A DNA stretch of 64,000 bases from assembly GCA_030527015.1 (NCBI GenBank), contig JAUNBR010000003.1, positions 28,624-92,623 on the forward strand. The letters run 5' to 3'. The translations under genes were made by a program, and so were the position numbers. Positions 1-64,000 of the stretch are shown piece after piece. The notes beneath the pieces are model-generated. The model was not told where the DNA came from. It worked only from the letters and a program-made list of their open reading frames with translations, and did no database searches. Within the stretch, counting starts at the first letter, position 1. Each line of letters opens with the position of its first letter. Source of the DNA: Planctomycetia bacterium. Its GTDB lineage: Bacteria > Planctomycetota > Planctomycetia > Pirellulales > Thermoguttaceae.

Positions 1-597
1 GAGGAAAACCTTCCACGCATTTTACGGGACGCGAATACGCTAATTGCGCTGGCTCTGGTACTGGGGCTTCATGACCAGCCGAACGATTATAAAGCATCTG
101 CGCCCGCGATTATTAAAACAGCACAGGCTTTAACGAAAAAAATTGAAGCATCTGGCGAAAAAACGCCTCTTGCTGATGTGCAAAAAGATGTAAAAGCACT
201 GCGCGCATCCTTTACCTCCACAGAAGGTGGTGACCTGGGCTGGGATACGCCCGTGGCCAGCATGAAACAGATGATGGTTCAGGTTCCGTTACTTGACAGT
301 AAATTAAAGGGATCTCTGCGACGATTTTCTCGGACAAAAGACGTTATGGCAGGCCAGGCGGCGACGATCGCAGTTTTATGTCAGGTAAGTACTGCGAATG
401 TCGCGGAAACAGAAGCACCGACAGAAGCGGAAAAATGGATCGAAGCATGTATTATCACTCGAGATGATGCGGCAGCACTTTACACAGCGATCGCGAATAA
501 TGATAAGGATGCTGCGAAAACTGCTTACGAAAAAATGGCGAAAAGTTGTGATGTATGTCACGAAACCTTCCATAAAGCGGCCATCGGCGCGAAATAA
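1..597 (+). CDS. class II cytochrome c-like protein (C-terminal CxxCH), 5' end outside window
   Basis: Frame 1 is open from base 1, with no stop before the listed GTG at 178, so the gene enters from upstream. Helical Ala/Lys-rich sequence ends with a CDVCH heme-c motif near the C terminus, as in cytochrome c'/c556. A hairpin plus T-run follows at 644-681. Confidence 0.55.
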   Translation, partial: EENLPRILRDANTLIALALVLGLHDQPNDYKASAPAIIKTAQALTKKIEASGEKTPLADVQKDVKALRASFTSTEGGDLGWDTPVASMKQMMVQVPLLDSKLKGSLRRFSRTKDVMAGQAATIAVLCQVSTANVAETEAPTEAEKWIEACIITRDDAAALYTAIANNDKDAAKTAYEKMAKSCDVCHETFHKAAIGAK

Positions 598-643
598 ACG
601 CATTTCACCATTTTTCCTCCGGGAAACCTAAACTGTTTTGTAT

Positions 644-681
644 CATGGGAAGGATTTTTTATCTTTCCCATGCTTTTTTTT
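644..681 (+). terminator. intrinsic terminator downstream of cytochrome-like gene
   Basis: CATGGGAAGG (644-653) pairs with CTTTCCCATG (663-672), giving a 10-bp stem with one G:U. A run of 8 T follows at 674-681. Confidence 0.65.
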
Positions 682-687
682 GAATTT

Positions 688-729
688 TATATCCGATGCA
701 TGGTAAATTTCCATTTCTCCGACATCTTT
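688..729 (+). repeat. SIR105 5'-arm fragment
   Basis: TATATCCGATGCATGGTAAATTTCCATTTCTCCGACATCTT matches consensus positions 1-41 and abuts the next full copy. Confidence 0.6.
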
Positions 730-836
730 TATACCCCAGATACACTACAAAATTCCGCTTCACCGGCATTTTGCTTCGCTGAAAAAACCTGCTTTTAGAG
801 CCGCACAAAACGAAATTTTAAATTGGAACCAGTATA
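730..836 (+). repeat. SIR105 full copy (subfamily B-like)
   Basis: TATACCCCAGATACAC...AAAATTCCGCTTCACCGGCATTTT..AAAAAACC..CGAAATTTTAAATTGGAACCAGTATA. Confidence 0.9.
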
Positions 837-985
837 ACCTGCTCTCTGTACGGCCGATATTTTCAGCGAGATAAACTGTATCTGATGCAATTATTTACTT
901 TTTAGCGTAAATGATACCGTGCCTGCCTAAACGCCAGAGGCATTAAAACCCATTTCTCCTGATTTCAGGGATTATCACTGTTTAT

Positions 986-2465: not shown

Positions 2466-2572
2466 TAAATCCGACGCACTATAAATTTCCGCCTCTCCAG
2501 CATTTTACTTCTCGCTTAAAATGCCTGCTTTCAGAGCCACACAAAACGAAAATTTAAAGTGGAACCAGGTAT
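2466..2572 (+). repeat. SIR105 full copy
   Basis: CCGACGCACTATAAATTTCCGCCTCTCC...AAAATGCCTGCTTTCAGAGCCACACAAAACGAAAATTTAAAGTGGAACCAGGTAT. Confidence 0.85.
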
Positions 2573-2601: not shown

Positions 2602-2705
2602 TATACCCGATACACCTATAAAATTCCACTTCCGCGGCATTTCGTTTTACTGAAAATATCTGTTTTAGAATGCATAAAACGAAAATTTAAAGGAGAACCT
2701 GTAAA
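2602..2705 (+). repeat. SIR105 full copy, diverged
   Basis: TATACCCGATACACCTATAAAATTCCACTTCC...AAAACGAAAATTTAAAGGAGAACCTGTAAA. Confidence 0.75.
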
Positions 2706-2734: not shown

Positions 2735-2842
2735 CATACCCGATGCACTATAAATTTCCGCCTCTCCGGCATTTTTGCTTCTCTCTAAAATACCTGCTTT
2801 CAGAGCCACACAAAACGAAAATTTAAAGTGGAACCAGGATAA
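2735..2842 (+). repeat. SIR105 full copy
   Basis: CATACCCGATGCACTATAAATTTCCGCC...CAAAACGAAAATTTAAAGTGGAACCAGGATA. Confidence 0.9.
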
Positions 2843-3436: not shown

Positions 3437-3572
3437 CCGTTTATTCCTCAGAGCAAAAATTTTATCCGCCGATCCAGTCAAAATACTGAGAGCCTATTTT
3501 AAATTTTCATCTCTCGTGGCCTCAAAAACAGATATTTTTCGTAAAACACAAAATACCGGTAAAGAGACAATT

Positions 3573-3784
3573 TATACCCGATGTACCTATAAATTTTCAC
3601 TTCTCCGGCATTTTTATACCCGATACACTATAAAATTCCGCTTCTCCGGCATTTAGCTTCGCCGAAAATGCCTGCAGTCAGAGTCACACAAAACGGAAAT
3701 TTAAAATGGAACCAGTATATACTTCGCTGAAAACGCCGGTTAAGAACCACTCAAAACTTAAATTTAAATTGGAATCAGAGTATC
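3573..3784 (+). mobile_element. SIR105 copy split by insertion of another SIR105 copy (nested composite)
   Basis: Outer 5' part 3573-3614 ends ...CTCCGGCATTTT. Outer 3' part 3720-3784 resumes TACTTCGCTGAAAACGCC...AATTTAAATTGGAATCAGAGTATC. A complete inner copy lies between them. Confidence 0.8.
3615..3719 (+). repeat. SIR105 full copy (inner element of nested pair)
   Basis: TATACCCGATACACTATAAAATTCCGCTTCTCCGGCATTTAGCTTCGCCGAAAATGCC...GGAAATTTAAAATGGAACCAGTATA. Confidence 0.92.
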
Positions 3785-4547: not shown

Positions 4548-4653
4548 TATACTGGTTCCACTTTAAATTTCCGTTTTGTACGGCTCTGAAAGCAGAGACA
4601 TTTTCTGCAAGAAAAATGCCGGGGAAGCGGAAATTTAACATGCATCAGGTATA
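4548..4653 (-). repeat. SIR105 full copy (inside the iorA-iorB spacer)
   Basis: TATACTGGTTCCACTTTAAATTTCCGTTTTGTACGGCTCTGAAAGCAG...GGAAATTTAACATGCATCAGGTATA. Ends 2 nt from the iorA stop codon. Confidence 0.92.
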
Positions 4654-6667: not shown

Positions 6668-6763
6668 ATGCCCTGCATTTTATTTTAAATTTCCATTTCA
6701 CGTGGCCATAAATCACAAGCAAAAAATAACGAAAAATCGTAAATTTATTATGCATGAGCATAA
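6668..6763 (-). repeat. SIR105 degenerate copy
   Basis: ...TTTTAAATTTCCATTTCACGTGGCC...CGTAAATTTATTATGCATGAGCATAA keeps both arms. The centre is decayed. Confidence 0.5.
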
Positions 6764-6805: not shown

Positions 6806-6910
6806 TATACTGTTTCCACTTTAAATTCCCGTTTCATACGGTTCTTAAAGCCGGCATTTTCAGCGAAGCAAAATACCGGAAAAACGGAAATTTATAGTGC
6901 ATCAGGTATA
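6806..6910 (-). repeat. SIR105 full copy
   Basis: TATACTGTTTCCACTTTAAATTCCCG...GGCATTTTCAGCGAAGCAAAATACC...TATAGTGCATCAGGTATA. Confidence 0.9.
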
Positions 6911-7195: not shown

Positions 7196-7321
7196 TATAC
7201 TCGGATACACGATAATTTTCCGATTCTTTGGCGTTTTGTGAAGTTAAGAAATATCCAGCTTCTGTGGCCATAACGCGTTTAATTTAAACTGCACACACTA
7301 AATTTTAATTGAAACCAGTAC
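7196..7321 (+). repeat. SIR105 degenerate copy
   Basis: TATACTCGGATACACGATAATTTTCCGATTC...AAATTTTAATTGAAACCAGTA. The central part is replaced. Confidence 0.5.
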
Positions 7322-7633: not shown

Positions 7634-7738
7634 TATACCCGATACACTATAAATTTTCGCTTCCCCAGCATTTTGCTTCGCTGAAAATGCCTGCGTTCAG
7701 AACCGCGCAAAACTAAAATTTAAAGTGGAATCAGTATA
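7634..7738 (+). repeat. SIR105 full copy
   Basis: Near-consensus copy starting 14 nt after the infA stop. Confidence 0.95.
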
Positions 7739-7754: not shown

Positions 7755-7892
7755 TATATCCGAGGCTCAGAATAAATTTTCCATCCAGCATGTCTTTTTT
7801 GGTTAAAAGTGCTCAAGCTCTGGTATTCTTCATACAGAATATCTGACTTTTAAGACCATGCAAAACGAAAATTAAAAGTGAAATCTGGTATA
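7755..7892 (+). repeat. SIR105 degenerate copy with ~35-nt internal insertion
   Basis: TATATCCGAGGCTCAGAATAAATTTTCC...CAAAACGAAAATTAAAAGTGAAATCTGGTATA. Confidence 0.5.
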
Positions 7893-9504: not shown

Positions 9505-9596
9505 GATATTTCGTTTTATATACGGTTCTGTACGCAGGCATTTTCAGCGAAACAAAAATGTCGAAAAAGCGGAAATTTTTTACTGCTTCTGGTATA
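9505..9596 (-). repeat. SIR105 copy lacking the CCAGTATA-side terminus
   Basis: ...ATTTCGTTTTATATACGGTTCTGTACGCAGGCATTTTCAGCGAAACAAAAATG...GCGGAAATTTTTTACTGCTTCTGGTATA. Confidence 0.65.
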
Positions 9597-9606: not shown

Positions 9607-9713
9607 TATCCTGGTTCCACTTTAAATTTCCGTTTTCTGCGGCTCTGAAAGCACAGGTATTTTAACGAAGCTAAATGCCCGGAGAAGCGGAAATTTATAG
9701 TGTATCGGGTATT
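9607..9713 (-). repeat. SIR105 full copy
   Basis: TATCCTGGTTCCACTTTAAATTTCCGTTTTCTGCGGCTCTGAAAGCAC...GCGGAAATTTATAGTGTATCGGGTATT. Confidence 0.9.
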
Positions 9714-11137: not shown

Positions 11138-11247
11138 TTATGCCCGACACATTATAAAATTTTCACTTTCCCGGACATTTTACTCCGCAAAAAATGCATG
11201 CATTTAGAGCCACACAAAATGAAAATTTAAAATAGCACCAGGTAAAT
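11138..11247 (+). repeat. SIR105 full copy, diverged
   Basis: TTATGCCCGACACATTATAAAATTTTCAC...CACAAAATGAAAATTTAAAATAGCACCAGGTAAATA. Confidence 0.7.
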
Positions 11248-11389: not shown

Positions 11390-11492
11390 TATATGGTTCT
11401 CGTTTAAATTTCCGTTTTGTGCGGCGCTGAAAGCAGGTACTTTCAGCGAAACAAAAATGCCGGAAAAGCGAAATTTTATCGTGTATCGGGGA
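11390..11492 (-). repeat. SIR105 full copy
   Basis: TATATGGTTCTCGTTTAAATTTCCGTTTTGTGCGGCGCTGAAAGCAGG...GCGAAATTTTATCGTGTATCGGGGA. Further fragments lie at about 11250-11389. Confidence 0.85.
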
Positions 11493-13666: not shown

Positions 13667-13774
13667 TATACCCGATACACTATAAAATTCCGCTTCACCA
13701 GCATTTTTTTGCTTCGCTGAAAATGCCTGCTTTCAGAACCGCACAAAACGACAATTTAAAGTGGAACCAGTATA
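13667..13774 (+). repeat. SIR105 full copy
   Basis: Near-consensus copy starting 4 nt after the stop of the Hsp70-like gene. Confidence 0.95.
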
Positions 13775-13775
13775 C

Positions 13776-13852
13776 TTTCAAATTTCGTTTTATACCAGGT
13801 ATTTTCAGTGAAGTAAAATCCGAAAAACAAAATTTATTGTGCATCAGGCATA
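13776..13852 (-). repeat. SIR105 truncated copy, head-to-head with the previous copy
   Basis: TTTCAAATTTCGTTTTATACCAGGTATTTTCAGTGAAGTAAAATCCG...AAATTTATTGTGCATCAGGCATAA. Confidence 0.6.
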
Positions 13853-13906: not shown

Positions 13907-14008
13907 TATACTCCGATTTACAATAAATTTTCATTTCTCTGAGATTTCACGATGAATGTTTATTTACGTAACTGCGCGAAACAGAAACTTAAAGAAAAAC
14001 CAGAATAC
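13907..14008 (+). repeat. SIR105 degenerate copy
   Basis: TATACTCCGATTTACAATAAATTTTCATTTCTC...GAAACTTAAAGAAAAACCAGAATA. Confidence 0.45.
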
Positions 14009-14121: not shown

Positions 14122-14228
14122 TATATCTGATACACTATAAATTTCCGCTTCCTCGGCATTTTTGTTTCACTGAAAATACCTATTTTCAGAACGCAAAAAA
14201 CGAAAATTTAAAGTGGAACCAGCATATA
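14122..14228 (+). repeat. SIR105 full copy
   Basis: TATATCTGATACACTATAAATTTCCGCTTCCTCGGCATTTTTGTTTCACTGAAAATACC...TTTAAAGTGGAACCAGCATATA. Confidence 0.9.
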
Positions 14229-14261: not shown

Positions 14262-14339
14262 TATCCCCGACACACAATAAAATTCCGATTTTTCTGGCGT
14301 TTTTTGCTTCACTGAAAAAATTGGAGAAGCGGAAATTTA
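14262..14339. repeat. SIR105 palindromised short derivative (left arm + loop + inverted left arm)
   Basis: TTATCCCCGACACACAATAAAATTCCGATTTTTCTGGCGTTTTTTGCTTCACTGAAAAAATTGGAGAAGCGGAAATTTA. Confidence 0.6.
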
Positions 14340-14446
14340 TATACCCGATACACACTATAAATTTCCGCTTCCTCGGCATTTTGTTTCACTGAAAATACCT
14401 GTTTTCAGAACCGCAAAAAACGGAAACTTAATGCGGAATCAGTATG
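14340..14446 (+). repeat. SIR105 full copy
   Basis: TATACCCGATACACACTATAAATTTCCGCTTCCTCGGCATTTTGTTTCACTGAAAATACC...GGAAACTTAATGCGGAATCAGTATG. Confidence 0.9.
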
Positions 14447-16372: not shown

Positions 16373-16479
16373 TATATTACCTGATATACTATAAATCTCC
16401 ATTTTCTCAGCATTTTTGCTTCGCTGAAAACCCGTTTTCAGAACCGGCACAAAACGGAAATTAAAGGTGAATCAGAATA
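16373..16479 (+). repeat. SIR105 full copy
   Basis: TATATTACCTGATATACTATAAATCTCCATTTTCTCAGCATTTTTGCTTCGCTGAAAA...GGAAATTAAAGGTGAATCAGAATA. Confidence 0.8.
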
Positions 16480-16565: not shown

Positions 16566-16670
16566 TATATCCGATACATGATGATTTTCACTTCCCCAGC
16601 ATTTTTACTTCGCTGAAAATGCCTGCTTTCAGAGCCACACAAAACGGAAATTTAAAGGAGAACCGATATA
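16566..16670 (+). repeat. SIR105 full copy
   Basis: TATATCCGATACATGATGATTTTCACTTCCCCAGCATTTTTACTTCGCTGAAAATGCC...GGAAATTTAAAGGAGAACCGATATA. Confidence 0.9.
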
Positions 16671-18256: not shown

Positions 18257-18364
18257 AATACCCGATGCAAGTATAAATTTCCGTTTCCCTGGCATTTTTG
18301 CTTCACTGAAAATGTCTTGCTTTCAGAGCCACACAAAACAGAAATGTAAAGAAAAACTCGTATA
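18257..18364 (+). repeat. SIR105 full copy
   Basis: AATACCCGATGCAAGTATAAATTTCCGTTTCCCTGGCATTTTTGCTTCACTGAAAATG... Starts 15 nt upstream of the LRR gene ATG. Confidence 0.85.
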
Positions 18365-20731: not shown

Positions 20732-20836
20732 TATACGGGTTCCACATTAAACTTCCATTTTGTGCGGCTCTGAAACCAGGCTTTTTTAGCGAAGCAAAAT
20801 GCCGAGAAAGCGGAAATTCATAGTGCATCGAGTATA
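20732..20836 (-). repeat. SIR105 full copy
   Basis: TATACGGGTTCCACATTAAACTTCCATTTTGTGCGGCTCTGAAACCAGG...GCGGAAATTCATAGTGCATCGAGTATA. Starts 6 nt after the yjbQ-like stop. Confidence 0.85.
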
Positions 20837-20925: not shown

Positions 20926-21029
20926 TATACGGATTCCACTTTAAATTTCCGTTTAAGAGACTCTGAAAGCAGGCATTTTCAGCGAAATAAAATGCCGAGG
21001 AAGCGGAAATTTATAGTGTATCGGGTATA
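20926..21029 (-). repeat. SIR105 full copy
   Basis: Near-consensus copy: TATACGGATTCCACTTTAAATTTCCG...GGCATTTTCAGCGAAATAAAATGCC...TATAGTGTATCGGGTATA. Confidence 0.95.
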
Positions 21030-21103: not shown

Positions 21104-21208
21104 TATACTGGATCCACTTTAAATTTCCGTTTTCTGCGGCTCTCGAAGCAGGCTTTTTCAGCGAAGCAAAATGCCGGGAAAGCGGAAATTTATAGTATAT
21201 CGGGTATA
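21104..21208 (-). repeat. SIR105 full copy
   Basis: Near-consensus copy: TATACTGGATCCACTTTAAATTTCCG...TATAGTATATCGGGTATA. Lies 139 nt upstream of rnc. Confidence 0.95.
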
Positions 21209-23115: not shown

Positions 23116-23225
23116 TATTCCCGATATACTAATATAAATTTTCGCCTTCCCCGGCATTTTTGTTTCACTGAAAATACCTGCTTTCAGAACCGCATAAAAC
23201 GGAAATTTAAAGGAAAACCAGTATT
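23116..23225 (+). repeat. SIR105 full copy
   Basis: TATTCCCGATATACTAATATAAATTTTCGCC...GGAAATTTAAAGGAAAACCAGTATT. Starts 5 nt after the stop of the ThiI-like gene. Confidence 0.9.
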
Positions 23226-24881: not shown

Positions 24882-25089
24882 TTATCCAGATGCATTATAA
24901 GAATGACGTATTACCGGCATTTTATACCCGATGCACTATGAATTTTCACTTTCCCGGCATTTTTGCTTCGCCGAAAATACCTGTTTTCTGAACCGCACAA
25001 AACGGAAATTTAATGCAGAACCAGTATTCTCGGTAAAATGCCGGCACCCAGAACCACGCAAAACGAAAATTTTACGTGGAGCCAAGATA
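24882..25089 (+). mobile_element. SIR105 copy split by insertion of another SIR105 copy (nested composite)
   Basis: Outer 5' part 24882-24922 ends ...TACCGGCATTT. Outer 3' part 25028-25089 resumes TCTCGGTAAAATGCCGGCACCCAGAACCACGCAAAACGAAAATTTTACGTGGAGCCAAGATA. Confidence 0.75.
24923..25027 (+). repeat. SIR105 full copy (inner element of nested pair)
   Basis: TATACCCGATGCACTATGAATTTTCACTTTCCCGGCATTTTTGCTTCGCCGAAAATACC...GGAAATTTAATGCAGAACCAGTAT. Confidence 0.9.
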
Positions 25090-27796: not shown

Positions 27797-27909
27797 TTTA
27801 CCGATTCCACTTTAAACTTTATTTAATCCTGGAAGCTGGTATTTTCTGCAAAACAAAAATGCTGATAATGTGAAAATTTAAGAGTATCTTGTATCATATT
27901 TCGGGTATA
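27797..27909 (-). repeat. SIR105 degenerate copy
   Basis: ...TACCGATTCCACTTTAAACTTTATTT...GTGAAAATTTAAGAGTATCTTGTATCATATTTCGGGTATA. Confidence 0.5.
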
Positions 27910-29053: not shown

Positions 29054-29159
29054 TAATACTGTTTCCACTTTAAATTTCCGTTTTGTGCGGTTCTTAAAGT
29101 AAGCATTTCAGCGAAGCAAAAATGCCGGAGAAACGAAAATTCATAGTGCATCGGATATA
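29054..29159 (-). repeat. SIR105 full copy
   Basis: TAATACTGTTTCCACTTTAAATTTCCGTTTTGTGCGGTTCTTAAAG...CGAAAATTCATAGTGCATCGGATATA. Confidence 0.9.
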
Positions 29160-32704: not shown

Positions 32705-32814
32705 TATATCCGATACACGATAAATTTCCGCTTTCCCAGCATTTTTACTTCGCTGAAAATGCCGGCATTAAAAGCCGCACAGAACGGAAATTTAAACAAG
32801 AATCAGATGGTATA
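32705..32814 (+). repeat. SIR105 full copy
   Basis: TATATCCGATACACGATAAATTTCCGCTTTCCCAGCATTTTTACTTCGCTGAAAATGCC...GGAAATTTAAACAAGAATCAGATGGTATA. Confidence 0.85.
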
Positions 32815-35627: not shown

Positions 35628-35751
35628 TATATGGTTTTCCTTTAAATTCTCGTTTTGTACGGCTCTGAAAACAGACATTTTCAGCGAAAAAAATACTTGG
35701 CATGCCGGTCGGCGAACATGAGAAACGGAAATTTATCGTGCATCAGATATA
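35628..35751 (-). repeat. SIR105 long variant (one extra block)
   Basis: TATATGGTTTTCCTTTAAATTCTCGTTTTGTACGGCTCTGAAAACAG... plus the GC-rich block CTTGGCATGCCGGTCGGCGAACATG before AGAAACGGAAATTTATCGTGCATCAGATATA. Confidence 0.8.
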
Positions 35752-35975
35752 AATATACACGTTCCTTCAAAATTTTAAATTCGCCACCAGCTATTAAAAT
35801 TATCGTATCACACCACCAAGAGTCCATTATTATATAATAATTTTTCTGAAAAACAAGCGATATTTCCTGTTTAGACCGACTCCGCATTAAATTTCCTTTC
35901 ACCGCAGCTCTGACTGTTATGTTTCGGATTCACGAAACGCCGAATGGAGAAAAAATAGACAAAAAAGTAAAAAAT

Positions 35976-36113
35976 TATGCTGGTTCCACTTTAAATTTCC
36001 ATTTTGTGCTGCTCTAAAAGAGGCATTTTTAGCCCAGCCTGCTGCCGGCAGCGAAGCAAAATGTCAGTCTGTCGGCCGAAAGGTGAAATGAAATTTTATA
36101 GTATATCGGGTAA
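35976..36113 (-). repeat. SIR105 long variant (two extra blocks, 138 nt)
   Basis: TATGCTGGTTCCACTTTAAATTTCC... with CCCAGCCTGCTGCCGGC in the loop and TCAGTCTGTCGGCCGAAAGGT before the arm. Same positions as in 34597-34740. Confidence 0.85.
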
Positions 36114-36331: not shown

Positions 36332-36438
36332 TATATCCTGGTTCCACTTTAAATTTCCGTTTTGTGCGGCTCTGAAAGCAGGTATTTCCAGCGAAGCAAA
36401 ATGCCTGAAAAGCGGAAATTTATTGTGTATCGGGTATA
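36332..36438 (-). repeat. SIR105 full copy
   Basis: Near-consensus copy: TATATCCTGGTTCCACTTTAAATTTCCGTTTTGTGCGGCTCTGAAAGCAGG...TTATTGTGTATCGGGTATA. Confidence 0.95.
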
Positions 36439-36579: not shown

Positions 36580-36679
36580 CATACTGTTTTTTAATTTAAG
36601 TTCGTGTGATTCTAAACACAGGCAGTTTTAACGAAACAAAATACCAGAGAAGAGAAAATTTATTACACTTTTTGGTATA
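36580..36679 (-). repeat. SIR105 degenerate copy
   Basis: CATACTGTTTTTTAATTTAAGTTCGTGTGATTCTAAACACAGGCAGTTTTAACGAAACAAAATACC...AAAATTTATTACACTTTTTGGTATA. Confidence 0.5.
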
Positions 36680-38004: not shown

Positions 38005-38110
38005 TATACTGGTTCCAATTTAAAATTTCGTTTTGTGCGGCTCTAAAAGCAGGCTTTTTCAGTGAAGCAAAAAAGCCGGTGAAGCTGAATTTTATAATGT
38101 ATCGTATATA
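38005..38110 (-). repeat. SIR105 full copy, subfamily B
   Basis: TATACTGGTTCCAATTTAAAATTTCG...CAGGCTTTTTCAGTGAAGCAAAAAAGCCGG...GCTGAATTTTATAATGTATCGTATATA. Confidence 0.9.
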
Positions 38111-38215
38111 AAATGCTTCGCTTTTAAATTTCCGTTTTATACGGCTCTGAATGCAGGTATTTTCAGTGAAGCAAAAATGCCGAGAAAGCGGAATTTTATC
38201 GTGCATCCGGATATA
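38111..38215 (-). repeat. SIR105 full copy (terminus diverged)
   Basis: ...CGCTTTTAAATTTCCGTTTTATACGGCTCTGAATGCAGGTATTTTCAGTGAAGCAAAAATGCC...GCGGAATTTTATCGTGCATCCGGATATA. Confidence 0.85.
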
Positions 38216-38220: not shown

Positions 38221-38280
38221 TCAGAAAAGCAAAAATTTCGTGCCAGAAAAGCAAAAATTCATAGTGCATCGGATACAAAA
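38221..38280 (-). repeat. two SIR105 arm fragments
   Basis: CAGAAAAGCAAAAATTTCGTGC and CAGAAAAGCAAAAATTCATAGTGCATCGGATACA. Confidence 0.4.
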
Positions 38281-39800: not shown

Positions 39801-40008
39801 TATACCTGATACCATAAAAAAATTCATTTTCCGGCATCTTATACCCGATACACTGTAAATTTCCACTTCCTCCGTATTTTACTTCGCTGAAAATGTCTGT
39901 TTCAGAACCGCAAAAAATGGAATTTAAACGAAAACCTGTATATTTCGCGAAGAATATGTATATTTTCAGAGAAACAAAAAACGAAAATTTAAGGTAAAAC
40001 CGCCATAA
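39801..40008 (+). mobile_element. SIR105 copy split by insertion of another SIR105 copy (nested composite)
   Basis: Outer 5' part 39801-39839 ends ...TTCCGGCATCT. Outer 3' part 39943-40008 resumes TTTCGCGAAGAATATG...AAAAACGAAAATTTAAGGTAAAACCGCCATA. Confidence 0.65.
39840..39942 (+). repeat. SIR105 full copy (inner element of nested pair)
   Basis: TATACCCGATACACTGTAAATTTCCACTTCCTCCGTATTTTACTTCGCTGAAAATG...GGAATTTAAACGAAAACCTGTATA. Confidence 0.85.
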
Positions 40009-40053: not shown

Positions 40054-40156
40054 TATACCCGATACACTATAAATTTCCACTTCTCATGCATTTTTGCTTC
40101 GAGAAAAATGTCTGTTTCAGAACCGTACAAAACGGAAATTTAAATAGAACCATATA
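40054..40156 (+). repeat. SIR105 full copy
   Basis: TATACCCGATACACTATAAATTTCCACTTCTCATGCATTTTTGCTTCGAGAAAAATG...GGAAATTTAAATAGAACCATATA. Confidence 0.85.
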
Positions 40157-42665: not shown

Positions 42666-42772
42666 TATATTCGGGCTCTCCTTTAAATTTCCTTTTTGTG
42701 CTGCTCTAAAATCAGGTATTTTCAGCAAAGCAAAATGCCGGAGAAACGGAATTTTATCGTACATCGGGTATA
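42666..42772 (-). repeat. SIR105 full copy
   Basis: TATATTCGGGCTCTCCTTTAAATTTCCTTTTTGTGCTGCTCTAAAATCAGGTATTTTCAGCAAAGCAAAATGCC...TTATCGTACATCGGGTATA. Confidence 0.85.
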
Positions 42773-42858: not shown

Positions 42859-42963
42859 TATACAGGATCTTCTTTAAATTCCTTTTTGCGCTGCTCTGAA
42901 ATCAGGCTTTTTTTTAAAGAAAAAATGCCGTGGACGCGGAAATTTATCGTGCATCAGAGATAT
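42859..42963 (-). repeat. SIR105 full copy, diverged
   Basis: TATACAGGATCTTCTTTAAATTCCTTTTTGCGCTGCTCTGAAATCAGG...GCGGAAATTTATCGTGCATCAGAGATA. Confidence 0.75.
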
Positions 42964-44267: not shown

Positions 44268-44372
44268 TATTCTCTGTTTCTACTTCCAATTTTCGTTTTG
44301 TACGGCTCTGAACGCAGACATTTCAGTGACACAAAATGCTGCGAAAACGAATTTTTTAGTAGATCGGGTTAC
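44268..44372 (-). repeat. SIR105 degenerate copy
   Basis: ...CTACTTCCAATTTTCGTTTTGTACGGCTCTGAACGCAGACATTTCAGTGACACAAAATGC...CGAATTTTTTAGTAGATCGGGTTA. Confidence 0.55.
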
Positions 44373-44460: not shown

Positions 44461-44567
44461 TATATCTGATGCACTATAAAATTCCGCTTCCTCGGCATTT
44501 TTGCTTCGCTGAAAATGCCTGCATTCAGAACCGCACAAAATGGAAATTTAAAATGGAATCAGGTATA
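44461..44567 (+). repeat. SIR105 full copy
   Basis: Near-consensus copy: TATATCTGATGCACTATAAAATTCCGCTTCCTCGGCATTTTTGCTTCGCTGAAAATGCC...GGAAATTTAAAATGGAATCAGGTATA. Confidence 0.95.
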
Positions 44568-44637: not shown

Positions 44638-44745
44638 TATACTGTTTTTCCTTTAAATTTTCATTTTATTCGGCCACGAAAGCCAGCATTTTCAGTTAAA
44701 AGTAAAAAATGCTGGAAAATGGAAATTTATAGTGTCTCGGATATA
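44638..44745 (-). repeat. SIR105 full copy, diverged
   Basis: TATACTGTTTTTCCTTTAAATTTTCATTTTATTCGGCCACGAAAGCCAGCATTTTCAG...ATGGAAATTTATAGTGTCTCGGATATA. Confidence 0.8.
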
Positions 44746-46058: not shown

Positions 46059-46166
46059 TATACCCGATGCATTATAAAATTCCACTTTTCTGGCATTTTT
46101 ACTTTTCGCTGAAAACATGTGCTTTTAGCGCGGTAAAAAACGGAAATTTAAAGCAGAATCATTATA
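46059..46166 (+). repeat. SIR105 full copy, diverged
   Basis: TATACCCGATGCATTATAAAATTCCACTTTTCTGGCATTTTTAC...AAAAACGGAAATTTAAAGCAGAATCATTATA. Confidence 0.8.
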
Positions 46167-46189: not shown

Positions 46190-46293
46190 TATACCCGATA
46201 CATATAAATTTCCGCTTCCCCGGCATTTTGCTTCGCTGAAAATGCCTGCTTTCCGAGCAGCACAAAACGGAAATTTAAAGTGGGACCAGTATA
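46190..46293 (+). repeat. SIR105 full copy
   Basis: Near-consensus copy: TATACCCGATACATATAAATTTCCGCTTCCCCGGCATTTTGCTTCGCTGAAAATGCC...GGAAATTTAAAGTGGGACCAGTATA. Confidence 0.95.
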
Positions 46294-48497: not shown

Positions 48498-49016
48498 ATT
48501 TTGCCCTGTGTATTTCCTGAAATATAAAACTAAAATGAGGACATTACGCGTACATGCTGGTCTCACACAAAATTTTAGCTTCTGCTGTACAAAATGGAAA
48601 TTTAGAATGTGTGACCAAGAACGGAAGAATTCCTTATAGCATACCAGCTACTTGACTTTTTTTCAACTGTTTTTTATAAATAATCTTAGTTTTTTATAAA
48701 TTTTATTTTTTTATATTATAATAATGTAGGATAAATTGAGAGGATATGTAAAGTAGTATATACTTTTTTACACGAGTCGATTTTTGTTTTTCATTTCGTT
48801 TTAAGAGAGATGATCTTTTTTATGCGTAATGACATTTTATTTTTTTAGTATTTTGTGTTACGGAAAGAATTCTGTGCTTTTGTGACTTTAAAACTGAAAT
48901 TTAAGGAGGGACCAGCGATAAAAGTTAAAATGAAACAGAGATAAATGGTGAGTGGTGTACAAAAAGAAACTTTGAAAGATGGAATAAAAATTTGAAAAAA
49001 CAGAAATGAGGTCTTC

Positions 49017-50162: not shown

Positions 50163-50268
50163 TATACTGGTTCCAATTTAAAATTTCGTTTTGTGCGGCT
50201 CTGAAAGCAGGCTTTTTCAGCGAAGCAAAAAAGCCGGTGAAGCTGAATTTTATAATGTATCGGGTATA
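50163..50268 (-). repeat. SIR105 full copy, subfamily B
   Basis: Almost identical to 38005-38110. Carries CAGGCTTTTTCAGCGAAGCAAAAAAGCCGG and GCTGAATTTTATAATGTATCGGGTATA. Confidence 0.95.
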
Positions 50269-51485: not shown

Positions 51486-51592
51486 TATACTGGTTCTGCT
51501 TTAAAATTCCGTTTTATACGGTTCTGAAAGGAGGCTTTTTCAGCGAAAGTAAAAATGCCGGAGAAGCGGAAATTCATAGTGTATCGGGTATA
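51486..51592 (-). repeat. SIR105 full copy
   Basis: TATACTGGTTCTGCTTTAAAATTCCGTTTTATACGGTTCTGAAAGGAGGCTTTTTCAGCGAAAGTAAAAATGCC...TCATAGTGTATCGGGTATA. Confidence 0.9.
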
Positions 51593-51652: not shown

Positions 51653-51756
51653 CATACTGACTCCCCATTAAATTTTCAGTTTTCGTGACGAAAAGCTCGG
51701 TGTTTTCCATGAAGAAAAATGTTTGGGAAAATGAAAATTTACCATGAACCAGATAA
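51653..51756 (-). repeat. SIR105 degenerate copy
   Basis: CATACTGACTCCCCATTAAATTTTCAGTTTTCGTGACG...ATGAAAATTTACCATGAACCAGATAA. Confidence 0.45.
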
Positions 51757-52588: not shown

Positions 52589-52693
52589 CCTGACCGACAC
52601 ACGAGAAATTTCCACTTACTCAGTATTTTTTTCGCTGAAAATGCCTGGCTTTCAGAGCCGCACAAAACGGAAATTTAATGTGGAACCAGTATA
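52589..52693 (+). repeat. SIR105 full copy (left end diverged)
   Basis: ...GACCGACACACGAGAAATTTCCACTTAC...CGCTGAAAATGCCTGGCTTTCAGAGCCGCACAAAACGGAAATTTAATGTGGAACCAGTATA. Confidence 0.8.
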
Positions 52694-52808: not shown

Positions 52809-52897
52809 GGATGACACATTAATAAATTTCCACTTTCTCGACATTTTCAGTGAAGTAAAAATGCCGGTGTGAGTAAAATTCACAGTATATCGGCCAA
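52809..52897. repeat. SIR105 palindromised short derivative
   Basis: GATGACACATTAATAAATTTCCACTTTCTCGACATTTTCAGTGAAGTAAAAATGCCGGTGTGAGTAAAATTCACAGTATATCGGCC. Left arm, loop and inverted left arm. Confidence 0.5.
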
Positions 52898-53658: not shown

Positions 53659-53763
53659 TATACCCGATACATTATAAAATTCAGCTTCACCGGCTTTTTT
53701 GCTTCACTGAAAAAGCCTGCTTTTAGAGCCGCACAAAACGAAATTTTAAATTGGAACCAGTAT
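53659..53763 (+). repeat. SIR105 full copy, subfamily B
   Basis: TATACCCGATACATTATAAAATTCAGCTTCACCGGCTTTTTTGCTTCACTGAAAAAGCC...CGAAATTTTAAATTGGAACCAGTAT. Confidence 0.95.
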
Positions 53764-54234: not shown

Positions 54235-54320
54235 TAATTTAGCATCTTATTCCAGGCGCATTTATAATTTCTATTTTTCTGTCTGCTGACTGGCTGGTTT
54301 TTCGCGGAGTATGAAAGAGT

Positions 54321-54368
54321 CTGCTTTTTCAGGTTACACAAAACGGAAATTTAAAGTGGAACCTGATA
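54321..54368 (+). repeat. SIR105 3'-arm fragment (between the two tat genes)
   Basis: CTGCTTTTTCAGGTTACACAAAACGGAAATTTAAAGTGGAACCTGATA. Confidence 0.6.
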
Positions 54369-56192: not shown

Positions 56193-56298
56193 TATGCCCG
56201 ATACACTATAAAATTCCACTTCTCCGGCATTTTGTTTCGCGCTGAAAATGCCTGTTTTTAGAACCGCATAAAACGGAAATTAAAATGGAGCCAGTATA
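56193..56298 (+). repeat. SIR105 full copy
   Basis: TATGCCCGATACACTATAAAATTCCACTTCTCCGGCATTTTGTTTCGCGCTGAAAATGCC...GGAAATTAAAATGGAGCCAGTATA. Confidence 0.9.
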
Positions 56299-56892: not shown

Positions 56893-57010
56893 TCCTGATA
56901 TTTAAATTTTTCTTTCCTGTCTGTGCAGCAGATTTCATATTTACAGAAGCAGACATTTTTCATGAAAAAAATGGACAGGAAAGAGAAATTTAAACTGTCT
57001 CTGATGTAAT
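56893..57010 (-). repeat. SIR105 degenerate copy
   Basis: CCTGATATTTAAATTTTTCTTTCCTGTC...GACAGGAAAGAGAAATTTAAACTGTCTCTGATGTAATA. The arms stay mutually complementary. Confidence 0.4.
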
Positions 57011-57919: not shown

Positions 57920-58024
57920 TATACTGGTTCCATTTTAAATTTCCGTTTTATGCGGCTCTGAAAGCAGGCATTTTTAGCGAAGTAAAATGCCGGGAAAGCG
58001 GAATTTTATAGTATATCGGGTATA
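57920..58024 (-). repeat. SIR105 full copy
   Basis: Near-consensus copy starting 9 nt upstream of the histidine kinase ATG. Confidence 0.95.
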
Positions 58025-58386: not shown

Positions 58387-58657
58387 TATATTCGACGTAT
58401 GATAAATTTTCGTTTTCTCGACATTTTTTATCGGATACACGATAAATTTCGCTTCTCTGATATTTTTGTGCTAAAAATATTTGCGTTTCTGCTGATTCTC
58501 CTGTAAATTTCCGTTTCATGCGGCTTTTAACGCAGACATTTTCAGCGAGAAAAAAATGCCAGAAAAGCGGAAATTTATCGTGCATCGGGTATAAAACCGC
58601 ATAAAATGAAAATTTAAAGGAGAGCCGGTATAAGGAAATTTATCGTGTATCAGTATA
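58387..58657. repeat. mosaic of at least 5 SIR105 pieces in both orientations
   Basis: Left-arm fragment 58387-58428. Left arm plus hairpin 58429-58495. Nearly full minus-orientation copy 58495-58593. Right-arm fragment 58596-58632. Left-arm fragment (inverted) 58633-58657. Confidence 0.7.
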
Positions 58658-59497: not shown

Positions 59498-59600
59498 TGT
59501 ACTGGTTTTGCTTAAAATTTCTGTTTTTCGCGGTTACTCCCGCATGTGTTTCCTGTTTTGGGAAATGCCAAGAATGTGAGGTTTTTAACGTATCGGGTTT
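59498..59600 (-). repeat. SIR105 degenerate copy
   Basis: TGTACTGGTTTTGCTTAAAATTTCTGTTTTTCGCGGTTAC...GGAAATGCC...TTTTTAACGTATCGGGTTTAA. Confidence 0.45.
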
Positions 59601-60766: not shown

Positions 60767-60872
60767 TATATCCGATATACCATAAATTCCGCTTCCCAGG
60801 CATTTTTACTTCGCTGAAAATGCCTGGCTTTCAGAGCCGCACAAAATGGAAATTTAAACGAAAACCAGATAA
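60767..60872 (+). repeat. SIR105 full copy
   Basis: TATATCCGATATACCATAAATTCCGCTTCCCAGGCATTTTTACTTCGCTGAAAATGCC... Preceded by a 10-bp inverted repeat, TAAAGTGGAA (60737-60746) / TTCCACTTTA (60759-60768), built from right-arm sequence. Confidence 0.9.
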
Positions 60873-61011
60873 ATTTCCATTTTATGTGGCCACGAAAGTA
60901 GGATTCCCAGTCCAGTCTGTTCCGGCAGAGGGTATGGGCTGGTGATTTCCATTCATTTACGTGCCCCATCCGTCAGCGTGAATGCAGCGAGAAGCCTGGA
61001 GTTCCGGAAAA

Positions 61012-61278: not shown

Positions 61279-61385
61279 TATGCAGATTTTCCCTTAAATT
61301 TCCATTTCACGCGGTTCAGGAAGCAGGCATTTTCCGTGAAAAGCAAAATTCCGGGAAAGCGGAAATTTACCGTGCTTCGGGTATA
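61279..61385 (-). repeat. SIR105 full copy, local variant
   Basis: TATGCAGATTTTCCCTTAAATTTCCATTTCACGCGGTTCAGGAAGCAGGCATTTTCCGTGAAAAGCAAAATTCCGGGAAAGCGGAAATTTACCGTGCTTCGGGTATA. Confidence 0.85.
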
Positions 61386-61451
61386 ACTTTCGTTTTCCGC
61401 GGCCACACGAAGGTCTGGTTTTCACGCGATCAAAATACCGAAAGGTGAAAT

Positions 61452-61559
61452 TATGTTTTGATTTTCCCTTAAATTTCCATTTCACGCGGTTCTGGAAGCA
61501 GGCATTTTCCGTGAAAAGTAAAATTCCGGGAAAGCGGAAATTTACCGTGCATCGGGTAT
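61452..61559 (-). repeat. SIR105 full copy, local variant (near-identical to 61279-61385)
   Basis: Differs from the copy 170 nt upstream at only a few positions by eye. Shares its private changes (CCCTTAAATTTCCATTTCACGCGG, TTTTCCGTGAAAAG, TTTACCGTGC). Confidence 0.85.
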
Positions 61560-61652
61560 GATTCGGTGCATGGAGCACAAAACCTTAAAAAGTGTGGTGT
61601 TTTCATAAGTAGTCATAAATTTATTACGGATCATGAGAAAGGACTTTTGGAG

Positions 61653-62888
61653 ATGGCAAAAAATTTTTCATTTTTATTTTATGTATTTTTTGTAGTATTT
61701 TCCGTTTCATTTTGTTGGGCTGACGAGGATATTACTGACAAATTGGAAGATCTGGGCATTCCCCACAAGGAGCGTTATCCAGACGGGGAAATGGCCTACG
61801 CACGAAATATCTGGGACATGATTCCGTATCGTGGAAGGATTTATCTCGGCTGCGGCGGATACGACAATTCTCCGCCGGCGGCCAACGCAGGACCGGTTCC
61901 CGTTATCGCGTTCGACACGAAAAGCAAAAAGTTTGTGACCGAGGAGAAAGGTTTACCGGACGAGCAGCTGGACAATTTTAAAATCTTTTCTGACGGTTTA
62001 CTTTATGCCCCAGGAATCGATCCGCGGCAGGGATGGGAGCTTGGGAATTTTTACCGAAGAACCCCTAACGGAAAATGGGAGGTCGTGCGCACGATGCCAA
62101 AAGGCATTCATAATTTTGACATGACCGAGTTCGACGGAAAAATTTTCTGCTGCGGATACGGAATCGCCATTTCCGAGGACAGAGGGAAAACCATGGTGCT
62201 GCGTGAAATGGGGCTGAAAGATATTCGAACCACTGCGTTTTTGCGATTTCCCAAGCGGTTATTTAGCGTTCGTGCTTTTAATTTTTTGGTTGAAGGGGAA
62301 GATTTTGTCTCCGAAATGAACGTCTATAATCCTAAAAAAAAGGACTTCGACGCGATGAAAATCTCTTGCGAAGAACTTTTTCCTGATTTACAGAAAACCT
62401 TTGTGCTTCCTAATGGACAGAGGCCGAAGCCTGAACACCGAATAATTTTCGGGGTTTCGATCACGAAAACGTGTAAGTATAAAAATCGCGTTCTTTATAT
62501 CGCCACCCGAAAAGACCACTTCCTTTTTAGCGCCGAAAATCCAAAAGGCAATCATTTTAAAGCCGTCCAGATTCCTCTTCCTGAAAACACTCGGGCAGAA
62601 GACTTATTCGCGAATAAAAACGCGGTTTACCTTCTCACCAGCTCGCCGGCCGAGCCTACCGCCGAGACAAAAGAATACACCAACCAAATTTGGAAATCTA
62701 AGGACGGCGTGCATTTTAAGCCCCTGTTTCATTTTCGGGCACCACAATTTGCCCGTTCCTTCGCCGTGGCAGGAAAGGATTTTTATTTCGGTTTAGGCGC
62801 ACGGTATAAGCGAGACATGAAAACCTATAAATGGGACGGTGCCCCGATTCCTGCCGACTGTGGGAGAATTTATCGTTATAAACCCTAA
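61653..62888 (+). CDS. hypothetical secreted protein
   Basis: Signal peptide MAKNFSFLFYVFFVVFSVSFCWA. Long ORF with visibly higher GC than the window average. No family recognised. Confidence 0.6.
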   Translation: MAKNFSFLFYVFFVVFSVSFCWADEDITDKLEDLGIPHKERYPDGEMAYARNIWDMIPYRGRIYLGCGGYDNSPPAANAGPVPVIAFDTKSKKFVTEEKGLPDEQLDNFKIFSDGLLYAPGIDPRQGWELGNFYRRTPNGKWEVVRTMPKGIHNFDMTEFDGKIFCCGYGIAISEDRGKTMVLREMGLKDIRTTAFLRFPKRLFSVRAFNFLVEGEDFVSEMNVYNPKKKDFDAMKISCEELFPDLQKTFVLPNGQRPKPEHRIIFGVSITKTCKYKNRVLYIATRKDHFLFSAENPKGNHFKAVQIPLPENTRAEDLFANKNAVYLLTSSPAEPTAETKEYTNQIWKSKDGVHFKPLFHFRAPQFARSFAVAGKDFYFGLGARYKRDMKTYKWDGAPIPADCGRIYRYKP

Positions 62889-62914
62889 TTCTACTTTTCA
62901 TTTTCAGTTTCCGT

Positions 62915-62976
62915 GACTCTGAAAATATCCGCGTTTAGTACCCCACAAAATGGAAATTTAAAGTAAGTGCAGTAAA
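62915..62976 (+). repeat. SIR105 3' two-thirds fragment
   Basis: GACTCTGAAAATATCCGCGTTTAGTACCCCACAAAATGGAAATTTAAAGTAAGTGCAGTAAA. Confidence 0.5.
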
Positions 62977-63023
62977 ATCCACCGGAAAAACATGGAAGGA
63001 AACGCGAAAGGAGGAAAAAATAA

Positions 63024-63977
63024 ATGAGAGTTGTTGTAATTGGTGCCGCAGGGCATATCGGCACGTATCTCATTCCCATGTTCGTCAGCGCGGGTTACGA
63101 AACCATCGCCATCACTCGAGGAATGTCCATGCCTTACGAGCCTCACCCCGCTTGGGACAAGGCGCGACGAGTTTTCCTGGACAGAGATGACCCAGACTTT
63201 ATCCAGAAACTCACGACGGTAGAGCCTGATATTATCGTCGACCTGGTGAACTTTCACCTCCAGGACACAAAGAAAATTGTGAATGCCTTTCAGGGCACTC
63301 GGCTTTCCCATTATCTTTACTGTTCCTCCTGTTGGGCGCACGGAATGGCGGAGACGATTCCTCTGGATCCAGACGATCTTCGTAAAGAGCCGCTGGACGC
63401 TTACGGAAAAGATAAGTTCGCCAGTGAAACATACCTGAAGGAGCAGTATCGGCAAAACGGATTTCCTGCGACAATCATCATGCCCGGGCAGATTTCCGGC
63501 CCTGGCTGGACGATCATTAATCCTTGGGGTAACACTTCGACGCGAGTGTTTCAGGACATCGCCGACGGGAAGGAAATCGCGCTGCCGAACTTCGGGCAAG
63601 AGATCCTTCACCACGTGCATGGATATGACGTGGCGCAAGTCTTCTTTTTAGCTGTCCGGCACCGTAATCAGGCCATGGGCGAATCTTTTGACGCAGAGGC
63701 AGAAACTCATATCACCCTTTATGGTTTCGCCAAACATCTGTATGAATATTTCGGGCACGCGCCGAAAATTCGATTTCTCCCTTGGCCCCAGTGGTGCGAA
63801 TACGTGGGAAATGCCCAGCAGTGCGAGCACTCTTATTACCATCTTACCCGCAGCGGCGTTTTCAGTATCGAAAAGACGCGCCGACTACTGGAGTATCAGC
63901 CGAAATATTCTTGCCTCGAAACGATCGACTTGGCCGTGAAAAGTTATATTGACCGAAAATTGATCAAGATAAATTAA
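63024..63977 (+). CDS. NAD-dependent epimerase/dehydratase family protein
   Basis: MRVVVIGAAGHIGTYL Rossmann motif and AAAGGAGGA RBS. Higher GC than the window average. Confidence 0.8.
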   Translation: MRVVVIGAAGHIGTYLIPMFVSAGYETIAITRGMSMPYEPHPAWDKARRVFLDRDDPDFIQKLTTVEPDIIVDLVNFHLQDTKKIVNAFQGTRLSHYLYCSSCWAHGMAETIPLDPDDLRKEPLDAYGKDKFASETYLKEQYRQNGFPATIIMPGQISGPGWTIINPWGNTSTRVFQDIADGKEIALPNFGQEILHHVHGYDVAQVFFLAVRHRNQAMGESFDAEAETHITLYGFAKHLYEYFGHAPKIRFLPWPQWCEYVGNAQQCEHSYYHLTRSGVFSIEKTRRLLEYQPKYSCLETIDLAVKSYIDRKLIKIN

Positions 63978-64000
63978 TTAAGATAAAAGGCAAAAGAGCT

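Follow-up and report, generated by a model that had tools for sequence, protein, structure and literature searches.

What kind of sequence can come to occupy nearly every intergenic spacer in a stretch of a bacterial genome? The question is raised by a 64,000-nt window (i.e. the whole stretch analysed) of contig JAUNBR010000003.1, from the metagenome-assembled genome (MAG) of an uncultured, Thermoguttaceae-like member of the Planctomycetia, in which a single short repeat recurs throughout. This family is most probably a non-autonomous DNA transposon of the terminal-inverted-repeat (TIR) type (i.e. a MITE, or miniature inverted-repeat transposable element) that is moved by a transposase encoded elsewhere in the genome. 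Elements of this kind are already known; the family itself is undescribed. Two of its features stand out, namely its density and, second, a one-sided preference for a T-run beside the insertion site.

Copy number, divergence and position relative to genes

Copies were located using an nhmmer profile (103-nt model) that was seeded with the consensus of an earlier reader of this DNA and iterated once, with removal of overlaps; near-full copies were those covering at least 85 of the 103 model positions. A total of 83 non-overlapping loci of one ~103-nt family were obtained, consisting of 63 near-full copies (32 + and 31 -) and 20 fragments, with many copies being decayed or truncated (Table 1). 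These loci sum to 7,699 bp (12.0% of the window), a density of 1.3 loci per kb, and the 10-mer core of the repeat, TAAATTTCCG, occurred 45 times on both strands as compared to 0.44 expected from shuffles. The earlier note had counted about 50 near-full copies and about 30 fragments of one family in both orientations, covering 7-8 kb or ~12%, and its picture is upheld by the profile model, counts and pairwise divergences that it had called for. Mean pairwise identity was 80% and mean identity to the consensus was 87.5% (i.e. 12.5% divergence). Neighbouring copies were no more alike than distant copies (identities of 0.81 and 0.80, respectively) and the most similar copies (38006, 50164 and 53660; 98% identical) lay 3.5 to 16 kb apart, indicating spread by transposition rather than local duplication. 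This ~98%-identity subfamily appears to be young and points to recent activity. Copies 34598-34739, 35632-35750, 35977-36112 and 7757-7887 were 15-40 nt longer than the model through internal insertions, and represent either a length variant (cf. the 107-bp and 155-bp forms of Correia elements) or independent indels.

Genes were called as the greedy longest open reading frames (ORFs) and checked against Pfam and NCBIfam. With this gene set, intergenic DNA amounts to 17.8 kb (28% of the window), of which 43% is filled by copies, and one or more copies are present in 35 of 40 spacers. Those lacking a copy were three very short spacers (-28, 34 and 18 nt), 20101-20291 and 54723-54957; spacer 48567-49016 contained two traces only (12 and 15 bits). 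This census agrees with the earlier observation that copies are absent only from very short spacers and 20101-20291, with a few other spacers being limited to degenerate traces. The infA gene (7387-7620) was omitted from the census, and 6471-7945 is actually two spacers, both occupied.

None of the 83 loci interrupts a gene. Overlaps with ORFs were limited to 8-47 nt at the 5' ends of longest-ORF calls and can be attributed to start-codon choice, such that the earlier statement that no credible coding region is interrupted still holds. TTTTA sites numbered 337 in coding DNA and 204 in free intergenic DNA. The presence of so many of these sites in coding DNA, together with zero copies in genes, indicates that confinement to spacers is due to selection. 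No orientation bias relative to genes was detected in tandem spacers (14 versus 20), at gene 3' ends (18 versus 14) or at 5' ends (15 versus 15), and a runs test of copy orientation along the window gave P = 0.11.

The genes of the window are ordinary chromosomal genes (e.g. iorAB, phosphoglucomutase, RNase III, infA, UmuC, a type II/IV secretion ATPase, GH2 and an OleD-like reductase). Scanning of 38 window ORFs with Pfam and NCBIfam detected no transposase domain, no Y1 transposase domain and no RAYT gene, and a search of the spacer open frames for a transposase was also negative, as the earlier note had reported for transposase-like genes. Stop-free frames outside genes were at most 135 codons in length, the longest ones running through copies.

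Structure and mobility of the element

The majority consensus of the copies is TTTT-ATACCCGATACACTATAAATTTCCGCTTCCCCGGCATTTT(T)GCTTCGCTGAAAATGCCTGCTTTCAGAGCCGCACAAAACGGAAATTTAAAGTGGAACCAGTAT-A, comprising an element of ~101-103 bp plus flanking TA, whose ends read (T)ATAC... and ...GTAT(A). The TIRs are 26 nt and imperfect, with 21 of 26 positions being complementary in the consensus and this pattern being kept across 49 aligned copies; nearly all copies have their mismatches at the same five positions. The most conserved part of the TIRs is an inner core, TAAATTTCCG / CGGAAATTTA. One central 8-bp hairpin, GGCATTTT/AAAATGCC, can be read straight from the consensus and is accompanied by a minor hairpin of 4 bp. 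The consensus, the 21/26 match of the ends and the 8-bp hairpin had all been given in the same form by the earlier note.

At least four copies are nested in other copies. Cutting out 3616-3718, 24924-25027, 39841-39941 and 58489-58592 rejoins host copies of 57, 41, 39 and 53 bits, respectively. Three of these four insertions (3616, 24924 and 39841) occupy the same spot, GGCATTTT^ in the central hairpin loop of the host copy, and have the host's orientation; the fourth (58489-58592) is in the opposite orientation at host model position 63/64. Moreover, the iorA-iorB spacer is 213 nt long and contains a copy (4549-4652) in the window, as compared to 70 nt and no copy in GCA_030527105.1.

Relatives of the window's genome were ranked by identity to the window phosphoglucomutase (PGM), the next relatives being labelled Planctomycetia or Thermoguttaceae. 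The closest relative, GCA_030527105.1 (78% PGM identity; same sample; GC 52-54%), carries two copies of the window family (hereafter family A) and ~14 copies of a family B in two loci of 41 kb in total. The ends of family B are of the same kind as those of A, i.e. TATAATACTTCGCGTTGAAATTTCCG ... CGGAATTTTAAAGGAGAACGAGTATA (ATACT.CG...AAATTTCCG), and its interior is unrelated and GC-rich; family B was absent from the window. Two copies of a variant C were found in GCA_030527705.1 (GC 48%), having similar ends and the central hairpin GTCGTTTC/GAAACGAC instead of GGCATTTT/AAAATGCC. Conserved ends combined with exchangeable interiors are expected if the ends are binding sites of a shared transposase. 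No copies were found in relatives at 68-71% PGM identity (GC 47-52%), one of which is another MAG from the same sample; these genomes show visibly tighter gene spacing. As judged from these comparisons, the element is limited to a narrow clade, within which only the window's genome shows the bloom. In GCA_030527705.1, iorA and iorB are separated by an insert made up of a HindIII-like restriction enzyme, a small ORF and an N6/N4 methyltransferase (locus L050, 11786-13729), with one family C copy located inside the insert (12725-12787) and one after iorB (14505-14604).

At the level of sequence, the nested insertions, the filled versus empty iorA-iorB site and the sister families in related MAGs show that the element has been mobile. 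Bacterial MITEs are defined as non-coding elements of <200 bp with TIRs, 5'-TA-3' termini and a long stem-loop, and a target-site duplication is also described for the class (PMC2229807; PMC10969869). With a 103-nt model that is within the ~50-500 bp of prokaryotic MITEs and lacks coding capacity, and with many dispersed, mobile copies (83 loci, four clean nestings, a filled and an empty site, and 98%-identical pairs at a distance), the family falls within the working definition of both articles.

Target site and putative transposition enzyme

The sequence context of the insertions was examined at both ends. Positions -4 to -1 of the left end were T in 58, 57, 68 and 76% of ends, respectively; at the right end, the next base was A in 59% and T in 28% of ends. 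TA was present on both sides of 23 of 40 anchored copies, read as T|A-TAC...GTA-T|A; when variable target duplications of 2-5 bp were sought at every end offset, only the constant TA emerged. The left T-run is part of the target rather than of the element. In the nested cases it is supplied by the GGCATTTT of the host copy, at 644-672 and 7607-7628 by the T-tail of a terminator-like hairpin, and at 13661-13667 it comes after a TGA stop codon.

A TA target fits a TA-specific DDE enzyme of the IS630/Tc1-mariner type, as proposed for the pneumococcal RUP element, and it is this type of transposase, with duplication of the TA, that we infer for the family. The enzyme would bind the two 26-nt imperfect TIRs, with their TAAATTTCCG / CGGAAATTTA core, and would insert the element at a TA dinucleotide, leaving TA on both sides. 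The preferred TA would be one that comes after a T-run on the element's left, such sites being offered by terminator T-tails, by positions just past stop codons and by the central hairpin loop of the element itself. Removal of genic insertions by selection would then cause copies to pile up until nearly all spacers were occupied, whilst old copies would decay, resulting in an average divergence from the consensus of 12.5%. Duplication is favoured by the head-to-tail arrays of family B, in which exactly one TA is shared by neighbours, the pattern that would result from entry of a new copy into the TA flanking an older copy and duplication of that TA; solitary family B copies have the symmetric context tt|TA...TA|aa.

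Several observations weigh against a TA-duplicating DDE enzyme. The duplication is unprovable from family A alone as the flanking dinucleotide never varies, 41% of 3' ends are followed by a base other than A, and the nested copy 3616-3718 fits a reading with no duplication (i.e. an element TATAC...GTATA) as well or better. The context of family A is also one-sided, with TT in front of the left TA in 39 of 79 ends as compared to 22% of free intergenic TA sites (P = 5e-8), and AA behind the right TA in only 5 of 58. Such a one-sided target preference is unusual for a symmetric DDE transpososome. Finally, neither the window nor ~110 kb of related loci yielded an autonomous element or a transposase that has matching ends.

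The restriction of the T-run to the left side and the oriented insertion at GGCATTTT^ in three nested cases would also suit movement as single-stranded DNA by an HUH/Y1 enzyme, namely the RAYT of REP/REPIN systems or the IS200/IS605 TnpA that moves PATEs, acting with no duplication and in a fixed orientation 3' of a short T-rich target. In line with such a mechanism, variable target duplications were lacking and the whole element could fold as one long hairpin of single-stranded DNA (-17 kcal/mol, z -3.8, for the consensus). This mechanism is nevertheless improbable. The ends are inverted repeats and not direct subterminal hairpins, and neither arm folds alone (left, -0.3 kcal/mol; right, 0 kcal/mol; no better than shuffles). 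The REP/REPIN-RAYT systems of Pseudomonas and enterobacteria resemble the family in being highly abundant, intergenic, hairpin-forming and moved in trans by a single-copy gene elsewhere (as presumed for the family); however, a REP unit is a palindrome of 20-40 nt that folds individually and bears a GTAG or CGTC tag, the head of two large REP superfamilies (PMC3733652), whereas the arms of the family are not self-folding and its ends are TATAC without GTAG or CGTC. Similarly, the PATEs of IS200/IS605 have no TIRs and have separate subterminal hairpins, in contrast to the TIRs and central hairpin found here. The left T-run is enriched (P = 5e-8) but only to ~50-76% per position and with TA on both sides, as compared to the fixed tetra- or pentanucleotide target of a PATE. 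IS200/IS605 insertions follow the direction of replication; the orientation of family copies was unchanged across a GC-skew switch (21+/20- and 6+/6- on the two sides). The missing Y1 domain in the 38 ORFs, the sharing of exactly one TA in family B arrays and the symmetric TT-TA-AA context of that family also count against an HUH/Y1 enzyme.

Folding, presumed transcription and possible host functions

The predicted RNA of the consensus + strand folds as one long hairpin of -29.4 kcal/mol (z -4.3) and that of the - strand has a fold of -37.2 kcal/mol (z -4.4). As copies occur in either orientation beside genes and at least one lies inside a presumed operon, we infer that many copies are probably transcribed within mRNAs, in which a long hairpin of -29 to -37 kcal/mol would be formed. 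By analogy with Correia elements, for which such effects have been demonstrated with RNase III (PMC2649163), effects on mRNA processing or stability are plausible.

Another proposal is that the repeat is mainly a host-selected RNA or DNA signal (i.e. a terminator, mRNA stabiliser, insulator or protein-binding site) that was spread by recombination. The stable fold on both strands, the retention of a central hairpin by A, B and C despite their different sequences, and the location of copies near stop codons and inside a presumed operon would all be consistent with this proposal. Evidence for a conserved structure was sought in 49 aligned copies. Paired cells made up 84.6% as compared to 83.5% in column shuffles, and RNAalifold found no consensus structure; double changes at paired positions were in slight excess (37 cells versus 21.6 expected from shuffles), an excess that can arise from shared descent. 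With this weak covariation and no RNAalifold structure, selected RNA structure was dropped as the main explanation. Copies did not stand out in a simple promoter/terminator scan of the first 20 kb of the window, and the orientation bias relative to genes that is expected for a terminator or stabiliser was lacking. Furthermore, nested insertions destroy host copies, and many copies are decayed or truncated. A host signal as the main explanation is therefore improbable; a secondary co-opted role may exist at some loci. The description of the repeat as 'structured' in the earlier note has to be toned down: the alignment argues weakly for selection on the hairpin, which is inherited from the palindromic design of the element.

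Distribution within the genome and in databases

The earlier note had raised the prospect of a density confined to the window. All three spacers of a separate 4.6-kb short-read contig from the same sample (43% GC; no overlap with the window) are occupied by a copy of family A, the third being cut by the contig end. The transketolase homologue encoded by this contig (P0259) has an AT-rich amino-acid usage like that of the window proteins, and the contig is probably from the same genome. Confinement to the window is, on the strength of this one contig with 3/3 spacers occupied, probably not the case. GC content is ~41% for the window's genome and 48-54% for the closest relatives, and the FYMINK/GARP ratio is 0.90-0.92 for window proteins as compared to 0.84-0.86 for orthologues in the closest relative. 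The MITE bloom thus coincides with a genome-wide AT shift.

Three contigs of an independent short-read assembly (run SRR24915838) match the window with 100% identity over 2.3-4.0 kb, and each begins and stops inside a high-scoring copy, the behaviour expected of a real dispersed repeat that breaks de Bruijn graphs. An assembly or binning artefact or a local oddity of the window, to which the MAG source of the DNA might lend some colour, is hardly credible, as an artefact would give identical copies whereas these differ (80% mean identity), the three independent contigs match fully and end inside copies, the 4.6-kb contig has a copy in every spacer together with a GC content and AT-rich usage like those of the window, and relatives carry sister families.

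Searches of Rfam at gathering score gave no matches for the whole window, and no description of the family was found in literature on Planctomycetes MITEs, Thermoguttaceae repeats or the sample and assembly accessions, in keeping with the earlier statement that the sequence matches no known family. A mir-95 hairpin obtained with Rfam in E-value mode over 20-40 kb was rejected (28 bits versus a cut-off of 67.5). Plasmid and phage collections gave no match by blastn. A degenerate 26-mer that matches 18 window copies detected 17 loci in the JGI metagenomes and 1 in IMG/VR, all being chance matches, and the family appears to be absent from both collections. In GTDB genomes, the pattern TAAATTTCCG-N50-58-CGGAAATTTA was found at 16 or more loci with no true copy among the matches listed, a result that says nothing either way.

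Comparison with known bacterial repeats

The earlier note had likened the repeat to Correia, REPIN, ERIC and RPE elements. This comparison stands for a small, intergenic TIR element with TA ends like those of Correia and RUP, and fails for the REP/REPIN type, with its self-palindromic arms and GTAG or CGTC tags. Correia elements (CREE/NEMIS) of Neisseria are alike in being non-coding, ~105-155 bp in length, and having TIRs of ~24-26 bp with TA termini (PMC2229807). They are also mostly intergenic, have predicted long stem-loop transcripts and have no known cognate transposase beside the copies. Their ends start with TATA and contain a AAATTTAAA-like run, as do those of the family, a resemblance that we take as a lead only. 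A target-site duplication is described for Correia elements, which can also create promoters, bind IHF and be bound or cleaved by RNase III (PMC2649163). They differ in belonging to an unrelated host phylum, in having no detectable sequence relation to the family (no Rfam match) and in copy load, with >120 copies in one N. gonorrhoeae genome (PMC10969869) as compared to 63 near-full copies in 64 kb here.

The RUP element (repeat unit of pneumococcus) is, by analogy, the closest mechanistic model, being a 107-bp element with TIRs and insertion at TA for which an IS630-family transposase acting in trans, IS630-Spn1, has been proposed (PMC2229807). RUP differs in that its TIRs match a known insertion sequence (IS), whereas no partner IS is known for the family, and in that RUP targets IS elements and the family inserts at TA sites next to a T-run, one such site being the loop of its own hairpin. 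The family probably belongs to neither Correia nor RUP, given the unrelated host phylum, the lack of a sequence match and the lack of a known partner IS.

In-frame fusion into genes, which is frequent for the RPEs of Rickettsia (PMC2229807), contrasts with the absence of family copies from genes. RPEs (105-146 bp) and ERIC elements are otherwise alike in their similar size, TIRs, long stem-loop and high copy number. Photorhabdus has a genome of ~5.7 Mb, for which size its ERIC elements reach ~0.1 per kb as compared to 1.3 per kb here. These 711 ERIC copies are the highest bacterial count in a 2024 review (PMC10969869), and the extreme density claimed by the earlier note agrees with this article: the density of the family is far above any bacterial MITE figure in PMC2229807 and PMC10969869.

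Table 1. Family A loci in the window, with nhmmer scores and positions covered in the 103-nt model
Positions	Strand	Type	Model positions	Bits	Remarks
689..727	+	fragment	1-39	18	left part of host copy split by 736-835
736..835	+	near-full	4-103	93	young subfamily; 93% identical to 50164 and 53660
2470..2568	+	near-full	4-100	85	
2603..2703	+	near-full	1-102	68	
2736..2840	+	near-full	1-103	89	
3491..3576	-	fragment	14-97	30	
3574..3614	+	left half	1-40	20	host copy split by nested insertion
3616..3718	+	near-full		95	nested in central hairpin loop of another copy
3721..3778	+	right half	41-100	30	host copy split by 3616-3718
4549..4652	-	near-full		88	between iorA and iorB (presumed operon); site empty in GCA_030527105.1
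6539..6643	-	near-full	1-103	98	
6679..6755	-	degenerate	8-95	16	
6807..6909	-	near-full	1-103	94	
7202..7319	+	degenerate	5-101	26	
7635..7737	+	near-full		99	directly 3' of infA terminator-like hairpin and T-run (7607-7634)
7757..7887	+	degenerate	2-100	20	internal insertion
9509..9595	-	fragment	1-83	54	
9608..9712	-	near-full	1-103	86	
11140..11241	+	near-full	1-100	61	
11394..11491	-	near-full	3-99	89	
13668..13773	+	near-full		96	starts 4 nt past TGA stop codon (TGA-TTTT-ATAC)
13773..13851	-	copy with deletion	1-93	32	
13912..14005	+	degenerate	4-102	28	
14123..14224	+	near-full	1-102	82	
14263..14339	+	truncated		33	truncated at model 88
14341..14445	+	near-full	1-103	90	
16378..16477	+	near-full	2-102	63	
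16567..16668	+	near-full	1-102	82	
18258..18362	+	near-full	1-102	74	
20733..20835	-	near-full	1-103	96	
20927..21028	-	near-full	1-103	92	
21105..21207	-	near-full	1-103	104	best-scoring copy
23118..23224	+	near-full	2-103	81	
24924..25027	+	near-full		91	nested in central hairpin loop of degenerate host copy
25034..25085	+	right part	49-100	26	host copy of 24924-25027
27799..27893	-	degenerate	2-102	39	
29056..29158	-	near-full	1-103	88	
30201..30303	-	near-full		87	ends 3 nt from stop codon
32483..32585	+	near-full	1-103	98	
32706..32806	+	near-full	1-100	82	
34374..34494	-	degenerate	1-100	42	insertion
34598..34739	+	copy with insertion	1-103	71	~40-nt internal insertion
35632..35750	-	copy with insertion	1-99	69	internal insertion
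35875..35944	-	fragment	30-101	17	
35977..36112	-	copy with insertion	2-103	66	internal insertion
36335..36437	-	near-full	1-103	103	
36594..36663	-	fragment	15-85	36	
38006..38108	-	near-full		87	young subfamily; 98% identical to 53660
38114..38210	-	near-full	4-99	84	
38221..38275	-	fragment	2-50	16	
39841..39941	+	near-full		73	nested in central hairpin loop of degenerate host copy
39947..40003	+	right part	44-100	16	host copy of 39841-39941
40055..40150	+	near-full	1-97	71	
42670..42771	-	near-full	1-102	90	
42860..42960	-	near-full	2-103	66	
44274..44369	-	near-full	3-100	63	
44462..44562	+	near-full	1-100	96	
44639..44744	-	near-full	1-103	61	
46060..46163	+	near-full	1-101	74	
46191..46292	+	near-full	1-103	100	
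48559..48608	+	weak trace	40-92	12	
48839..48915	+	weak trace	25-100	15	
50164..50267	-	near-full		95	young subfamily; 98% identical to 53660
51487..51591	-	near-full	1-103	89	
51654..51754	-	degenerate	3-103	36	
52594..52692	+	near-full	5-103	81	
52823..52893	-	fragment	5-88	24	
53660..53763	+	near-full		91	young subfamily; 98% identical to 50164 and 38006
54252..54365	+	degenerate	4-100	33	
56194..56297	+	near-full	1-103	88	
56945..57005	-	fragment	3-64	15	
57921..58023	-	near-full	1-103	101	
58388..58428	+	fragment	1-41	12	
58430..58487	+	left part	3-63	21	host copy split by nested insertion
58490..58592	-	near-full		86	nested in opposite orientation at model 63/64 of + host copy
58593..58631	+	right part	65-103	17	host copy split by 58489-58592
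59500..59598	-	degenerate	3-102	25	
60768..60868	+	near-full	1-100	78	
60870..60902	-	fragment	56-88	14	
61281..61384	-	near-full	1-102	79	97% identical to 61459
61385..61452	-	weak fragment	18-86	12	
61459..61559	-	near-full	1-99	79	
62909..62974	+	fragment	37-102	37	

Other features of the window

Three strong copies, all in one orientation (20733-20835, 20927-21028 and 21105-21207), lie ahead of the RNase III gene (21348-22088). Correia hairpins are processed by RNase III in Neisseria; given the saturation of spacers, the location of copies before the window RNase III gene is probably a coincidence.

GC skew turns from negative to positive at ~45-48 kb (cumulative minimum at ~44-47 kb) and does not simply follow gene strand. 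Adjoining this switch is the divergent spacer 48567-49016 (450 nt), which is AT-rich (32% GC for 48-49 kb), contains a 20-nt AT-rich tandem repeat at 48669-48715 and, unlike most long spacers, has no real copy. The region 44000-49100 could be a replication origin; against this assignment, 9-mers that resemble a DnaA box with one mismatch show only mild clustering (48407, 49118 and 49202) and no dnaA gene is nearby.

The other 10.4 kb of intergenic DNA was searched for a second repeat family and gave none except a tandem repeat at 61010-61154 (62-nt unit, 2.4 copies, 77% match), which lies upstream of 61566-62888 and has no relation to the main family. Two paralogues of Zn_peptidase_2 (PF04298; 50464-51162 and 51814-52509) are adjacent genes, and the 651-nt spacer between them holds two copies. 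The gene at 25197-27743 encodes a large protein with BspA-type leucine-rich repeats and a C-terminal FGE-sulfatase (formylglycine-generating enzyme-like) domain, and contains several short tandem repeats at 25978-27005.

Implications

Compactness is the rule in bacterial genomes, in which it is rare for a MITE family to reach more than a few hundred copies; in this window, one family accounts for 12% of the DNA and 43% of intergenic space. A far-reaching combination of claims would be that saturation is genome-wide, with one MITE family taking up ~6-12% of the genome of a free-living bacterium (a share comparable to or exceeding the 8-10% quoted for plant genomes), that the one-sided T-run reflects a transposase with an asymmetric, oriented target recognition unlike that of typical IS630, and that the host, having a hairpin at almost every transcript boundary, has co-opted copies for RNA processing. 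This combination is possible but doubtful. If the density does extend genome-wide, the family would represent a natural bacterial MITE burst on a plant scale, and would offer a system for examining the limits to which selfish DNA is tolerated in a streamlined genome, the link of such a burst to the fall in GC and to longer spacers, and the influence of hairpins between most genes on transcription and mRNA decay. Short-read assemblies are broken by the repeat into pieces of 2-5 kb, and the lineage will consequently be under-recovered in metagenomes. Families A, B and C, with their shared ends and different interiors, provide a clean system in which to find the transposase and its recognition sites.

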